In this document: in pieces, positions 56,311 to 64,000 of the stretch
Position numbering within the stretch: position 1 is the stretch's first letter
Layout: each line of letters starts with the position of its first letter
NCBI GenBank assembly: GCA_965214035.1
Contig: OZ243932.1
Span: 1,857,260 to 1,921,259 of the forward strand
Reading direction: 5' to 3'
From: Gammaproteobacteria bacterium
Lineage (GTDB): Bacteria > Pseudomonadota > Gammaproteobacteria > JAJDYQ01
DNA length: 64,000 nt
The notes under the pieces: model-generated
Database searches by the model: none
The model's input: the letters and a program-made list of their open reading frames with translations, nothing else
What the model was told of the DNA's origin: nothing
Program-made: the position numbers and the translations under genes

Positions 56311-57930
56311 ATGGGCACTTTAGCTGCCATATCTACCCCTGACAGCCCTGATAAGCCGTGGCGGGCGCTACATCTGTTCAACCTCTATCGGCTGATCATC
56401 GCCGGCGTTATTGCCATTATTTTTCATGCGAGTGAGGGCAATACCATTTTTGGCCAGCAGCTGCCCCGCCTGTTTGGCCATGCCATTATCATATGGCTGG
56501 CCATCATACTGCTGAGCGGATTCTCCAGCCGGCTCAGAGCACCACATTTTCATCTACAGGCATACGGCCTCATCATTACCGATATCGCCTTTATCAGCAT
56601 GTTGATGTATGCCAGCGGAGGAATTGCCAGCGGCTTTGGTGTCCTGCTGCTGGTCACTATCGCAGCCAGCGGCATTCTGTCAAGCCGCCATATTCCCTTT
56701 GCCTTTGCTGCCGCGGCCACGCTGGCAATATTTGCCGTGCAGTTCATAAAAGGTTTCCGGATGTTTGTCAGCGGGGAACCGCCGGAACTTGAATATGCAC
56801 AAAACGGCCTGCTCGGTGCAGCCTTGTTCGCTGTTGCATTACTCTCTCATCTGCTTGCGCAGAGAGTAAGGGTCTCGGAGATTCTTGCGGAGCAAAGGCG
56901 GGAGGAATTAACGGATCTGGCCACAATTAACGAACTGACCATCCAGCAAATGGAAACCGGCGTCGTTGTTGTCGATCCCCATAATATTATCCGGCTGTGC
57001 AACTCGGCAGCGCAGGATATGCTCGGGCGCGGTAGTGATGTTGTTTCTCACCCGCTTAACTTTATTGCGCCAAAGCTGTATGAGCAGCTGATGCGATGGC
57101 GACAGGGCACACAGGATATGCCCAAGCCATTCAGAAATACGCCAGAAGGCAAAGAGTTGCTGCCTCATTTTCGAAGTCTGGAAGCAAGGTCAAATCTCTC
57201 AATACTTATATTCCTTGATGATACATCGATGCTGTCGTATCAAGCCCAGCAATCCCGATTGGCCTCATTGGGCCAGCTGACCGCCAGTATCGCCCATGAA
57301 ATCAGAAATCCTCTCAGTGCAATCAGCCATGCCGGCCAGCTCCTGGGCGAAGTCAATACACTGGATGCGGCAGACCGTCGCCTGATTGAGATCATTCAAA
57401 ATCAGTCGGAACGGCTGGACACGATTATCAAGAGCATTCTGTCTCTTTCCCGAAAAAAAGAGTTCAGCCCCGAAAAACTGGAACTTACCGACTGGATACA
57501 TCAGTTTATCACCAGTGCCATTAACGAAAGAGGCATCGCCACCGAATCAATTCAACTCGAATGCCCGAAAACACCCCTCTATATTCATGCTGACCCGCTC
57601 CATCTGAATCAGATAATGTATAATGTGACCGAGAACGGAATACGGCATTCACAAATGCAAAATTCTGATACACTATTGAAAATCGTGTGCGGCCCCGGCG
57701 GTAATGACAAAACCGTGGAAATCAACATTATTGATTATGGTAGCGGCATCCTGGAAAAATACCGGGAAAAATTATTTGAACCCTTTTTTACCACACTTCC
57801 ACGGGGCACCGGCCTGGGGCTTTATATCGCCCGTGAGCTCAGCCAGATCAACCATGCGCATCTGCAATACATCGCTGACTCAAATTACGGTGCACACTTC
57901 AAAATCAGCTTCAGCCGAGTGCAGGAATAA
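56311..57930 (+). CDS. pilS: sensor histidine kinase PilS-like
   Basis: N-terminal 6-TM domain starting LFNLYRLII, HisKA H-box SIAHEIRNPL, HATPase G-boxes; start uncertain (track ORF begins 56200). Confidence 0.8.
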   Translation: MGTLAAISTPDSPDKPWRALHLFNLYRLIIAGVIAIIFHASEGNTIFGQQLPRLFGHAIIIWLAIILLSGFSSRLRAPHFHLQAYGLIITDIAFISMLMYASGGIASGFGVLLLVTIAASGILSSRHIPFAFAAAATLAIFAVQFIKGFRMFVSGEPPELEYAQNGLLGAALFAVALLSHLLAQRVRVSEILAEQRREELTDLATINELTIQQMETGVVVVDPHNIIRLCNSAAQDMLGRGSDVVSHPLNFIAPKLYEQLMRWRQGTQDMPKPFRNTPEGKELLPHFRSLEARSNLSILIFLDDTSMLSYQAQQSRLASLGQLTASIAHEIRNPLSAISHAGQLLGEVNTLDAADRRLIEIIQNQSERLDTIIKSILSLSRKKEFSPEKLELTDWIHQFITSAINERGIATESIQLECPKTPLYIHADPLHLNQIMYNVTENGIRHSQMQNSDTLLKIVCGPGGNDKTVEINIIDYGSGILEKYREKLFEPFFTTLPRGTGLGLYIARELSQINHAHLQYIADSNYGAHFKISFSRVQE

Positions 57931-59306
57931 TGCCACACCGCGCTCTGATTCTTGACGATGAGGCCGATATACTCGAACTCATTGACCTTACATTCTCGCG
58001 CATGGATATCCAGTGCACACTGGCTGAGACCCTGGCTGAGGCCTATAACTTTCTGGACAAGAATGAATATGATCTGTGTATCACGGACATGAGGCTACCG
58101 GACGGAAGCGGCATGGAACTACTGCACAGACTCCAGAAAAGCTATCCGGAATTACCGGTTGCTGTTATTACCGCATTTGGCAGTGCTGATCTTGCAGTGG
58201 AAAGCCTGAAAGCAGGCGCATTTGATTTTATTTCCAAACCTCTGGATCTGGTGAGACTGCGCAAACTCGCCACCAATACGCTTAAGCTGAAAAACGAGCG
58301 TCTGGAAACTACCTCAACCGACAGGCTTCTTCTGGGCGAATCACAGGCCATCAAGCATGTCAAGAAAATGATTCGCAAACTCTCCAGAAGCGAAGCGCCT
58401 GTTCACATCAGTGGCGAATCGGGTACTGGCAAAGAACTGGTAGCTCGGTCCATTCATCAACTCGGCCCAAGAGCGGAAGGCCCCTTTATCCCCGTTAACT
58501 GCGGTGCCATACCTGGAGAACTGATGGAAAGCGAATTTTTCGGCCATAAAAAGGGTAGCTTTACCGGTGCAACCCAGAATAAACAGGGTCTTTTTCATGC
58601 CGCCCAGGGAGGGACGCTGTTTCTGGATGAGGTTGCCGAGCTTCCTCCTCCAATGCAGGTCAAACTGCTGCGTGCCATACAGGAAAGGGCGATACGACGA
58701 GTGGGAGAGCATGACGAGCAACCGATGGATGTCAGGATACTCAGTGCCACTAATAAAGACCTTGCCGCCCTGGTGAAAAAGCAGGAATTCAGAGACGACC
58801 TGTACTACAGGCTGAATGTGATCAACCTGCCCATACCGCCTCTTCGAGAGCGGCATGGTGACATTCCATTATTAACCCGCCATTTCATAGGTCGCCTGAA
58901 AAACAGTCATGGAACGGATATCGAGATCACTGAACCGGCAACCCAAAAGCTGGAGGAATATCATTACCCTGGCAACATCAGGGAGCTGGAAAATATACTG
59001 GAGGGTGCCACCGCCATCTGCGAGGATTATACGATTCAGGCCCATGACCTCAACTTAACTTCCCCCCCACCCCAGACCCAGACTACCGACATGCCGGCAA
59101 AAGCCGATGACAGGCCGGAACGCCCAGTGCAGATAACAGCACGCGGCGAACAGGCACTGTCCGATTATCTGGAACAAATTGAACGATCCGAAATCACTTC
59201 AGTGCTGGAGCAAACACAATGGAATCGAGGCAGAGCAGCCCGAATATTAAAAATAACACAGCGCCAACTGAGGTATCGCATGACCAAACTGGGCATTCAA
59301 GGCTGA
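57930..59306 (+). CDS. pilR: sigma54-dependent response regulator PilR-like (NtrC family)
   Basis: 458 aa; receiver (DMRLPDG), AAA+ sigma54 domain ([14 protein letters not shown]-like [15 protein letters not shown]), C-terminal Fis HTH. Confidence 0.9.
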
Positions 59307-59337
59307 CAAAATCTGTCGCATCAGGACAGATTCTGTC
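59305..59337. promoter_or_regulatory. inverted repeat GACAAAATCTGTC-N7-GACAGATTCTGTC, candidate PilR enhancer
   Basis: Near-perfect palindrome directly after pilR stop, about 170 bp upstream of sigma54 promoter. Confidence 0.5.
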
Positions 59338-59476
59338 AATTCAATAAATAATATATACCCGCCAATTAACTCCTGGTTATCCATGAGGGGAAACGGCGTG
59401 GCCATCTGTTTCCAGACTACCATAGTGCAGAACGCCTTGGTACTGATACAGGATTCAGATGGATCGGTATAGAAAA

Positions 59477-59492
59477 TGGCACGCCACTTGCT
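59477..59492 (+). promoter_or_regulatory. sigma54 promoter TGGCAC-N5-TTGC
   Basis: TGGCACGCCACTTGC with 12-nt GG-to-GC spacing, about 65 bp upstream of pilin ATG. Confidence 0.7.
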
Positions 59493-59557
59493 TGCGATTA
59501 AGATAGCATACTGCTACTTGTTTACAACCTTTTATTATTGACTTTAGGGAGTCTGAA

Positions 59558-59980
59558 ATGAAAAAGATACAATCCGGTTTTACACTGATCGAAGTCATGA
59601 TCGTAGTAACGATCATTGCTATTCTCGCCGCTGTTGCGCTGCCTGCTTACCAGAACTACACCAAACGGTCCCATGTGTCCGAAGGGCTTTCTCTGGCCAG
59701 TGGCGTAAAGGCCTCAGTTGCTGAACACTATGCTGCCAGAGGCAGCTGGCCTGCAGATAGCACAGCCGCCAATATTCCGGGAAATATTGACGGTGAAGCA
59801 GTAACTCAGGTCTATGTATCCAATGGCATAGTCGTGGTCGAGTTCAACCAGAGCGTAGAGGCTGGTAAAAACATTGAATTATCACCTTATGCCGACACCG
59901 GTTCCATTAAGTGGGCATGCAGATCTGCCAATACTGATGGTGTCAGCACATTATACCTTCCCGAGCGCTGCCGTACCTGA
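59558..59980 (+). CDS. pilE: type IVa major pilin (copy 1)
   Basis: [16 protein letters not shown] prepilin leader; C-terminal Cys pair; GGAG RBS. Confidence 0.9.
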
Positions 59981-60002
59981 GTCTCATCCAGCCAAAAATA
60001 TG

Positions 60003-62959: not shown

Positions 62960-63415
62960 ATGAAAAAAATACAGTCCGGCTTTAATCTGATCGAGCTGAT
63001 GATCGCAGTGGCGATCATCGGAATTCTGGCCGTTATCGCATTGCCTGTTTATCAGAACTATACCAAGCGAGCCTACATCATTGAAGGTCTGTCCCTGGCT
63101 AGTGGCGCAAAGGCTGCCGTCTCTGAATACTATTCTGCGCAGGGCAGATGGCCTGTGAGCAACGTTCAGGTCGGCCTTGATAATGCCAATAATATTACCG
63201 GTGAGTCGGTAAACAGCGTTGTAGTGCAGCCCAATGGCGAAATTGCTGTCATCTTCAACGAAAGAGTAAGAAACAATGAATATCTTGTGTTGGTGCCCAA
63301 TACCAGCGGCGGTTCCATCATATGGGAATGCACTCCCGGCACTCTGGACGGCACATATCTTCCGATACGTTGTCGCGACAGGCGCTCCTCGGAGCAGGGA
63401 GAAACAGGGGATTAA
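62960..63415 (+). CDS. type IVa major pilin (copy 5, divergent)
   Basis: [17 protein letters not shown] leader; C-terminal Cys pair. Confidence 0.85.
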
Positions 63416-63458
63416 CAGACCATATATGCGGAAAAATCTGTTTGGCGAGTAATCTGAA

Positions 63459-63638
63459 ATGAAAAAGATACAATCCGGCTTTACACTGACCATCGTTTTC
63501 AACGAAAAGGTACAAGACAACAAAAGGCTTGAATTATCGCCTGTTGTTGATTCCGGTTCCATTGAGTGGGTGTGCCGACCCAGCAGCATCTACAATCCAA
63601 TCGATGAAAAATACCTGCCGACACGTTGCCGTCACTGA
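63459..63638 (+). pseudogene. internally deleted pilin copy (leader + C-terminal D-region only), promoterless
   Basis: 59 codons: [10 protein letters not shown] fused directly to [31 protein letters not shown]...CRH; no TGGCAC-N5-TTGC upstream. Confidence 0.7.
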
Positions 63639-63749
63639 GTCCCTAAGGACAGATTGGATGAAATAGGCCCCGGAGATCGATAGAAACTGCCAATCTGGAC
63701 AGGCGCGAGAATACCCTCTAACCAGAATCCCGGACCACTTGACACAAGA

Positions 63750-63765
63750 TGGCGCACTAATTGCT
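63750..63765 (+). promoter_or_regulatory. sigma54 promoter TGGCGC-N5-TTGC
   Basis: TGGCGCACTAATTGC; upstream palindrome CAGATTGG...CCAATCTG at 63647-63694. Confidence 0.7.
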
Positions 63766-63813
63766 TCGTGCTTCACAGCTCACTCGCAACCTTTAAAATT
63801 CGAGTTCCCTGAA

Positions 63814-64000
63814 ATGAAAACAGCACAATCCGGTTTTACGCTGATCGAGCTTTTGATCACGGTAACAGCCATCGGCATTCTGACTGCCATTGCACTACCC
63901 GTCTATCAGAACTACACCAAGCGGACTTATATAGCTGAAGGCCTGTCTCTGGTTGGCAGCGCAAAAGCTGCTGTCACCGAATACTATTCTTCCGAGGGCA
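63814..64000 (+). CDS. type IVa pilin (copy 7, 3' partial at window edge)
   Basis: [17 protein letters not shown] leader; runs off window. Confidence 0.8.
   Translation, partial: MKTAQSGFTLIELLITVTAIGILTAIALPVYQNYTKRTYIAEGLSLVGSAKAAVTEYYSSEG

Follow-up and report, generated by a model that had tools for sequence, protein, structure and literature searches.

The 64-kb stretch of contig OZ243932.1 analysed here (the window; 48% GC, all coordinates are window positions) comes from an uncultured gammaproteobacterial lineage with genomes of about 2.5 Mb. Directly 3' of the genes for the sensor kinase PilS and the response regulator PilR it carries seven pilin-like open reading frames (ORFs), all on the forward strand, which are numbered P1 to P7 below. 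The locus is an unusually large variant of the well-known PilSR/sigma-54 major-pilin system and not a new kind of system. According to our analysis it is probably an expanded tandem and recombining family of type IVa major-pilin genes, co-regulated by PilSR and sigma-54 with graded output. Six of the pilins look functional and one is a remnant, as P6 is a deletion derivative.

The five complete ORFs of the window, P1 (59558-59980, 140 residues, C-terminal type I), P2 (60622-61053, 143 residues, type III), P3 (61341-61775, 144 residues, type III), P4 (62060-62482, 140 residues, type II) and P5 (62960-63415, 151 residues, type IV), score above the Pfam gathering thresholds for both Pilin (PF00114; 63-72 bits against a cut-off of 22) and N_methyl (PF07963). 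P2 is shared with the related strain L166. The intact pilins are 140-151 residues long and consist of a hydrophobic alpha1 helix followed by the globular Pilin domain. The prepilin processing site reads MKK(I/V)QSG|FTLIE in P1-P4 and continues with FNLIE in P5, and Gly-1, Phe+1 and Glu+5 are retained in all intact copies. A D-region of the form W-x-C ... (Y/L)(L/R)P-x-R-C-R, whose cysteine pair would be expected to form a disulfide, is present in P1-P6 and in full-length P7. The closest solved structures in the PDB are those of Neisseria PilE (E-value about 1e-27), and the closest named proteins are Acinetobacter PilA proteins, to which the pilins are 49-57% identical. These features support the assignment of the intact copies to the type IVa major-pilin paralogs of the PilA/PilE type. 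An earlier note on this DNA had described the N-termini as alike and the central parts and D-regions as divergent, and this description holds for paralogs of that class lying behind pilSR. The spacing of 0.7-1.0 kb given there was too uniform, the start-to-start distances being 1064, 719, 719, 900, 499 and 355 nucleotides (nt).

The two remaining ORFs account for the departures from the common leader which had been ascribed to all seven prepilins and which P1-P5 do possess. P7 (63814-64000, type IV) is cut by the end of the window, gives an N_methyl match on its visible part and has a slightly different leader, MKTAQSGF. Its full-length form is represented by protein P0258, an intact 140-residue pilin ending in RCRS that is identical over the 62 visible residues and is encoded on a 2,513,604-bp contig. 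P6 (63459-63638) is a remnant of a type III pilin with 59 residues, matching the C-terminal half of the Pilin domain only. It lacks the alpha1 helix and Glu5, residues from about 11 to 94 being gone and the G|F junction being kept, and corresponds to a 252-nt in-frame deletion relative to an intact 143-residue pilin (L081_D) of the related locus L081. It starts 43 nt after the stop codon of P5 and has no promoter of its own. On these features P6 is judged not to be a functional pilin, and it is attributed to a recent deletion in a gene that is intact in a relative.

Two further observations concern this part of the array. After its final Cys-Arg, P5 bears a charged, Ser-rich tail of 11 residues (63371-63415), while the other paralogs stop one residue past that point; the tail is kept in the L081 counterpart L081_C (L081 13310-13765) and in proteins P0259 and P0261, with a variant ending in ...GEVWD. 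An antisense ORF of 264 codons (62795-63589, minus strand) runs across P5 and P6, and similar ones lie over the other pilin genes; they are taken to be by-products of the pilin coding sequence.

The promoters of the array are nearly uniform. The element TGGC(A/G)C-N5-TTGC occurs exactly six times when both strands of the 64 kb are searched, against 0.58 occurrences expected, and none of 100 shuffled sequences reached six. All six sites are on the forward strand and each precedes an intact pilin: P1 (TGGCACGCCACTTGC, 59477-59491), P2 (TGGCGCACTAATTGC, 60543-60557), P3 (TGGCGCATTAATTGC, 61269-61283), P4 (TGGCACGTTAATTGC, 61987-62001), P5 (TGGCACGCTAATTGC, 62901-62915) and P7 (63750-63764, the same sequence as that of P2). 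The six exact -24/-12 elements listed in the earlier note are thus all found at their positions, and far from falling below the threshold of a position weight matrix, they are the top six scores of the whole window when a consensus-weighted score (TGGCACG-N4-TTGCW) is applied across it. The distance to the ATG, previously put at 60-70 bp, is corrected to 44-66 nt when counted from the -12 GC of P1-P5 and P7. The element recurs in the five related loci: all pilins there that possess an upstream region of their own are preceded by TGGCAC-N5-TTGC or by a form that departs from it at one or two bases and retains GG-N10-GC. Only L081_D, which corresponds to P6 but is intact, deviates from this pattern; it has no promoter, starts 43 nt after the preceding stop codon and hence looks co-transcribed. 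Sigma-70 promoters showed no enrichment (11 found, 14.2 expected). Taken together, the six -24/-12 promoters look real by position, rank and recurrence in relatives. A perfect 16-nt inverted repeat, CACAGGTTGTCAATAC / GTATTGACAACCTGTG (61293-61308 / 62926-62941), was found in the 5' untranslated regions (5'UTRs) of P3 and P5, where it sits between the -12 element and the ATG; about 0.3 matches would be expected even with three mismatches allowed. It may be an orientation-independent operator. In L081 only the P5-side copy is present, unpaired.

The regulators expected to act on such promoters are encoded immediately upstream. The pilS gene (56311-57930, forward strand) encodes 539 residues from the ATG at 56311, the mechanical ORF start being a TTG at 56200, and this length agrees with the 537-539 residues called in relatives. 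Its product has the Pfam domains 6TM_PilS (2e-37), HisKA and HATPase_c. The pilR gene (57930-59306, forward strand) encodes an NtrC-family sigma-54 enhancer-binding response regulator with the Pfam domains Response_reg (REC), Sigma54_activat (6e-69), AAA_lid_14 and HTH_8 (a Fis-type helix-turn-helix), and with a GSFTGA loop of the GAFTGA type at residue 209. PilR is 55-57% identical to proteins named PilR in their sources, including Pseudomonas PilR (56%). The identification of a PilS-like kinase and a PilR-like activator, originally made from the sequence alone, is therefore borne out by the domain architectures. About 240 nt 5' of the pilS start lies a -24/-12-like GG-N10-GC element (TGGTACCATACTTGCT, 56070-56085, forward strand; consensus score 18/20), and the GG-N10-GC frame is kept in the sucC-pilS intergenic region of the relatives L082 (TGGCACTATATTTGCT), L083 (TGGCATTATATTTGCT) and L085 (TGGCATCATGTTTGCC), the sequence of L081 being that of the window. 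The pilSR genes may themselves be sigma-54-dependent and autoregulated, as has been reported for pilRX of Xanthomonas oryzae (PMC7170775).

The uniformity of the promoters is not matched by that of the upstream regions. Sigma-54 promoters need an enhancer-binding activator and do not fire without one, and PilR is the only enhancer-binding protein encoded at the locus. A candidate PilR enhancer for P1 (GACAAAATCTGTC-N7-GACAGATTCTGTC, 59305-59337) spans 33 bp and overlaps the pilR stop codon; its two palindromes of 13 bp each have a centre-to-centre distance of 20 bp and precede the -24 element by 172 and 152 nt. The corresponding candidate for P2 (GACAAAATCTGTC-N7-AACAGATTTTGTC, 60368-60400) has its palindromes at 175 and 150 nt before the -24 element, and an extra single palindrome with the sequence GACAAAATCTGTC (60290-60302) lies 78 nt further up. 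P5 has a degenerate copy (62759-62791) that is 68% identical to that of P1. No enhancer-like palindrome is found within 260 nt 5' of the P3 promoter, and P4 and P7 have one half-site each, 30 nt upstream of the promoter in the case of P4 (GACAGAAT) and 102 nt upstream in the case of P7 (GACAGATT). The motif GACA-N5-TGTC occurs five times in the 64 kb, four of them 5' of P1 and P2 and one elsewhere, and in 59300-64000 the half-site GACARAWT shows an enrichment of about 18-fold. When the region between pilR and the first pilin was aligned from five taxa, it proved 65% identical with many indels, and the conserved islands were the double palindrome, the -24/-12 element and the segment from the Shine-Dalgarno sequence (SD) to the ATG. 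The IHF consensus WATCAA-N4-TTR has no match between enhancer and promoter in any unit. In Pseudomonas aeruginosa, PilR binds with sigma-54 at the pilA promoter, and elements of the TGTC type are among the hallmarks of its sites (PMC6058289). For this reason the GACA-N5-TGTC double palindrome is read as the likely PilR enhancer. The units are consequently separately promoted but not autonomous, since one activator class is common to all of them and a recognisable enhancer is present in only two or three. The previous description of fully autonomous sigma-54 units does not agree with this distribution, in which a complete enhancer is confined to P1 and P2, P5 has a degenerate one, and P3, P4 and P7 have a half-site at most.

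Transcript ends are likewise unequal. GC-rich hairpins of -15 to -20 kcal/mol, homologous to one another, follow the stop codons of P1-P4 at a distance of 20-25 nt on the forward strand. The hairpin after P1 (60002-60033, -18 kcal/mol) is followed by four T; that after P2 (61075-61113) is a canonical intrinsic terminator with a 13-bp stem and eight T; and that after P3 (61799-61828) is an intrinsic terminator ending in TTTTTT. The strong hairpin after P4 (62502-62531, -20 kcal/mol; CTCTTTGCC) lacks a proper T-run, being followed by CTCTTTG, and was listed by the terminator search only as a minus-strand site. Nothing terminator-like was detected 3' of P5 or P6. Of the four stem-loops with T-runs proposed before, all four hairpins thus exist, and the canonical T-run is restricted to P2 and P3. 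Some read-through is therefore likely, at least from P5 into P6 and probably beyond P4.

The repetitive structure of the locus indicates how it may have grown. Repeat families detected in the window, labelled D7 (promoters), D9 (enhancer), D10-D12 (unit including hairpins) and D13 (extra palindrome), span the promoter, the 5'UTR, the coding region, the hairpin and parts of the intergenic DNA. The period of units 2-4 is exactly 719 nt; the first unit measures 1064 nt and holds the extra enhancer block. As whole promoter-gene-hairpin units of 719-1064 nt have been duplicated, private promoters and hairpins are the expected by-product of the duplication, a simpler account of them than autonomous regulation. 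The synteny of nadE, sucDC, pilSR and pilin genes is kept in relatives, and the number of pilin genes differs among them: at least five in L081 (PilR 98% identical; the contig ends there), three in L085 (83%), and two each in L083 (82%) and L082 (81%). Beyond these relatives the next PilR homologues are only 55-57% identical. The HtpG protein, too, reaches at most 68% identity to any sequence from outside the lineage, and about 63% to the named relatives ('Gammaproteobacteria', Thiogranum). Strain L166, with 95% DNA identity, has the same P1-P2 arrangement, and its contig breaks inside P2; short-read assemblies (L081, L166) break inside the array. L081, whose flanks are 91% identical, lacks 2.1 kb of the window with P2 and P3 and does not have the deletion in P6.

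Clustering of the variable C-terminal parts, which differ by 33-63% between copies, yielded about five types that recur across species. Type I comprises P1, L081_A and L166_a; type II comprises P4, L081_B and L085_a; type III comprises P2, P3, P6 with its counterpart L081_D, L083_a and L085_b; type IV comprises P5 with L081_C and P7 with L081_E; and type V comprises L082_b, L083_b and L085_c. Since the types are common to several species, the paralogs are old, maintained genes and not transient duplicates. The 5' ends have had a different history. Over its first 120 nt, P1 matches P3 at 98-100% and P4 at 90-92% identity, both being of other types, and its positional orthologue L081_A at only 73-80%. 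The 5' ends are thus homogenised within the genome in a mosaic fashion, which is indicative of gene conversion, or of recombination, within the conserved 5' segment. In view of this homogenisation, of copy gain and loss between strains and of an internal deletion, the claim that diversity is achieved by paralog choice rather than by recombination alone was too strong. In L082, L083 and L085 type V is the last pilin before a membrane protein of about 650 residues; as this type has not been reached by position 64000, the array probably continues past the window. In the middle pilin of L085 (12582-13016) the leader and the start of alpha1 are degenerate (MKKIPSDFTLTGL), and neither Gly-1 nor Glu+5 is present; copies in these arrays are duplicated but also decay.

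In the explanation that we favour, the array would have grown by unequal crossing-over of whole promoter-gene-terminator units and would evolve by birth and death combined with 5' gene conversion. Phosphorylated PilR bound to the GACA-N5-TGTC palindromes, together with sigma-54 RNA polymerase, would activate all six promoters, and the pilins would be co-regulated by one signal because the same PilR and sigma-54 would drive all of them. With one regulator class and one promoter class, co-regulation with graded output is the expected result: output would be set by enhancer quality and distance, with the highest levels predicted for P1 and P2 and a middle level for P5, whose transcript would extend into P6; P3, P4 and P7 would be weakly expressed or would rely on looping from distant sites. 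As the processing site is kept and the alpha1 helix is near-identical, the intact copies would be handled by one prepilin peptidase and one assembly machine and be counted jointly by PilS, and the paralogs may be co-assembled into mixed filaments. In P. aeruginosa, PilS directly contacts PilA for autoregulation and phosphorylated PilR activates sigma-54 transcription (PMC6058289). Here PilS would sense the membrane pilin pool with all paralogs counted together, and the divergent exposed domains could provide antigenic, phage-receptor or adhesive diversity.

Several points weigh against this explanation. PilR binding is deduced from the position, symmetry and conservation of the palindromes only, and the hallmarks of PilR sites described for P. 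aeruginosa (TGT-N11-AGA and GTCT elements; PMC6058289) are not identical to the palindrome motif. The enhancer-poor promoters of P3, P4 and P7 might be silent, or differential control might be possible if another activator, encoded elsewhere, serves them. The window does not reach the end of the array, and rpoN was not identified among the annotated ORFs of the window, the only part of the genome in which it was looked for. Finally, the organism is known only from metagenome-assembled genomes, and the case is built from sequence.

In a different and, in our view, unlikely explanation the units are autonomous, independently regulated cassettes and one or few pilins are made at a time by mutually exclusive or condition-specific choice. 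Each intact gene does have its own promoter, hairpins follow four of the genes, the 5'UTRs and upstream regions differ between units, and the differences in enhancer content could result in differential expression. The phenotypes of PilA1-3 in Xylella, which differ and are partly opposing (PMC9956873), are in line with such a division of labour. However, the promoters are all of one class with near-identical -24/-12 elements, a single enhancer-binding protein is encoded at the locus, and neither an invertase, nor a second regulator, nor a conserved invertible segment is found there. Moreover, given the activator requirement of sigma-54 promoters, three units devoid of a recognisable enhancer are the opposite of autonomous. 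With six near-identical promoters of one class and one adjoining PilR, the inference of independently regulated and possibly mutually exclusive pilins was not sustained; as a whole, the parts list of the earlier note stands apart from P6 and the quality of the terminators, and its regulatory interpretation was overstated.

The conservation of the enhancer at the head of the array can be read in another way, although we consider it improbable. P1, and perhaps P2, would be highly expressed from a positional expression site, and the complete genes downstream would serve mainly as a sequence reservoir, with the enhancer-less copies held at a low standby level. Recombination in the homogenised 5' segment of 120-150 nt, or deletion and duplication of whole units by unequal crossing-over, would move a new variable domain beside the enhancer, so that about five ancient types swap into the enhancer-proximal slot in a full-length-gene analogue of pilE/pilS variation. 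In each of the five taxa a complete and conserved double enhancer precedes the gene at position 1, P1 shares its 5' end with P3 at 98-100% identity and has a 3' part of another type, copies have been gained and lost between strains, and the position-1 gene has 57-82% nucleotide identity between the window and L081 against 91% in the flanks. Opposed to this, the promoters, SD, start codons and ORFs of the downstream copies are intact over species-level divergence, which indicates that these copies are likely expressed and selected as genes. In addition, position 1 is occupied by type I in the window, L081 and L166, with no switching seen among close strains, and the G4 motif of the window is not conserved. 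If true, such an arrangement would represent a route to pilus surface variation distinct from both the cassette conversion of Neisseria and invertase switching.

Elements of known pilin variation systems were looked for as well. The search for a G4 element as in Neisseria gave one motif (GGGTCTGGGGTGGGGGGG, 59062-59079, minus strand) about 480 nt upstream of P1; it lies inside the region of pilR coding for the linker, is absent from the five relatives and is probably coincidental, so that such an element was rejected. An invertible-segment switch of the Moraxella tfpQ/tfpI-piv type was rejected, no recombinase ORF being found at the locus, and the 16-nt inverted repeat is not a conserved invertible segment because L081 has the P5-side copy only. 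A silent-cassette system of the Neisseria type was rejected too: six of the seven copies have a promoter, an SD, an ATG and a full ORF, and P6 alone is truncated.

It is quite improbable that some of the paralogs are not filament subunits at all and act as co-located pilin-like proteins, such as modulators of competence or pilus dynamics or substrates of glycosylation. The unusual C-terminal tail of P5 could be taken in this sense, and precedents exist in the second pilA of P. stutzeri, which antagonises transformation (cited in PMC6060248), and in PilA1 and PilA2 of Legionella, which differ in being the piliated subunit (PMC13170364). All intact copies are nonetheless 140-151 residues long with a Pilin domain and the D-region cysteine pair, and score alike against the major pilins of Pfam and PDB. 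Least credible of all is an assembly artefact, a false tandem array produced when strain variants of one pilin gene were collapsed. Hypervariability is typical of pilin loci, and metagenome assemblies do break at this one. The copies, however, differ by 33-63% in the variable domain and are separated by intergenic DNA that is not the same from unit to unit; in independent assemblies at least five lie in tandem (L081) and the P1-P2 junction recurs (L166), and proteins identical to window products are encoded on a 2.5-Mb contig.

Putting these arguments together, the PilSR/sigma-54-controlled, graded and recombining family remains our preferred explanation, and its position among known systems can be outlined as follows. 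With pilSR/pilA of P. aeruginosa the locus shares a PilS with six transmembrane segments, an NtrC-type PilR, a -24/-12 element before the major pilin and TGTC-containing upstream sites, and by analogy pilin autoregulation through PilS would be expected here (PMC6058289). It differs in that P. aeruginosa has one pilA, not adjacent to pilSR, whereas here at least six expressed-looking pilins lie directly 3' of pilR and the enhancer is a pair of 13-bp palindromes; in the Pseudomonas loci sampled, pilSR is flanked by other prepilin-like genes without -24/-12 matches. In Xanthomonadaceae, Xylella and Legionella, major-pilin paralogs are also under PilSR and sigma-54, some of them in tandem and with differing functions (PMC9956873, PMC13170364, PMC7170775). 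The number of such paralogs is two or three for Xylella (PMC9956873) and for Legionella (PMC13170364), compared with at least seven copies here. We found no report in the literature of a gradient of enhancer content, or of several cross-species variable-domain types, within one array.

With the pilE/pilS system of Neisseria the locus has in common that pilin copies are numerous, with the 5' part conserved and the 3' part variable; signs of gene conversion are seen here too, and one copy, P6, is truncated and promoterless. Neisseria silent copies lack both the promoter and the 5' coding region, whereas the present array has six complete genes with promoters and no conserved G4, and P6 is a recent deletion. 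In the Cystobacteraceae (Stigmatella, Hyalangium) up to seven pilA homologues occur and are thought to be derived by duplication, but most of these copies are dispersed from the type IV pilus cluster, and the tandem pair of pilA genes in Stigmatella was called unusual (PMC6060248).

The closest named pilins come from the group I PilA systems of Acinetobacter and P. aeruginosa with a downstream TfpO glycosylase, and here, too, the pilins end in Ser or Thr right after the D-region (RCRT/RCRS), as do the substrates of TfpO (PMC9829042). As in those systems, the arrays of the relatives are followed by a membrane protein and glycan-synthesis genes. The protein of about 650 residues immediately 3' of the array (L082 13193-15145; L083 12935-14869; L085 13951-15909) gives a weak, below-threshold match to DUF6056 (listed as GT_STM0557_N) along with TPR repeats and, in contrast to TfpO, is not Wzy_C/TfpO-like. 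Glycosyltransferase, methyltransferase and aminotransferase genes lie past it, and the region 3' of the relatives' arrays is a probable pilin-glycosylation island. In the window, two adjacent and divergently oriented genes (13054-15075, forward; 15163-17055, minus strand) encode membrane proteins of 630-673 residues with a Wzy_C (O-antigen ligase) domain and C-terminal TPR repeats, a pair that resembles O-oligosaccharyltransferases of the PglL type.

The remaining surroundings of the array are as follows. The genes nadE, sucD and sucC, with Pfam labels taken from syntenic relatives, lie on the minus strand 5' of pilS (52218-55915), and a gene for an IS256-family transposase (49455-50663; NCBIfam E = 1e-112) lies about 6 kb upstream of pilSR. 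Rfam gave no match in the pilin region, its sole match in the window being a tRNA (20427-20500).

The rarity of such arrays was estimated from small samples that do not amount to a census. A single pilin is present in each of the 28 metagenomic loci that are at least 6 kb long and encode a pilin with this class of leader, and 22 of these loci have a -24/-12 match. A metagenome scan with the pilin alignment found no member of the lineage, the best hit reaching 51% over the full length. Among 80 PilR neighbourhoods of other Gammaproteobacteria (PilR 52-57% identical), at most two sigma-54-preceded pilins stand together, namely in Xanthomonas and Stenotrophomonas. Against these numbers, and those of two, two, three and at least five in the close relatives, the claim that long arrays are unusual is upheld; arrays of this length are rare, and the word unique is not supported.

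Major pilins form the exposed surface of the type IV pilus, which phages, predators and host immunity target, and they also set adhesion, motility and DNA uptake. Most well-studied systems make use of one major pilin, sometimes of two or three. The present locus therefore offers a natural test case, in which one assembly-competent N-terminus, a single promoter class and a single regulator pair are common to at least six intact paralogs with unequal enhancer content. As the organism is uncultured, only metatranscriptomics or heterologous reconstruction can address the questions that the array raises: how several major pilins share one machine and whether they form mixed filaments, how PilS would count a heterogeneous pilin pool, and how far a sigma-54 enhancer may reach along a repeated array.

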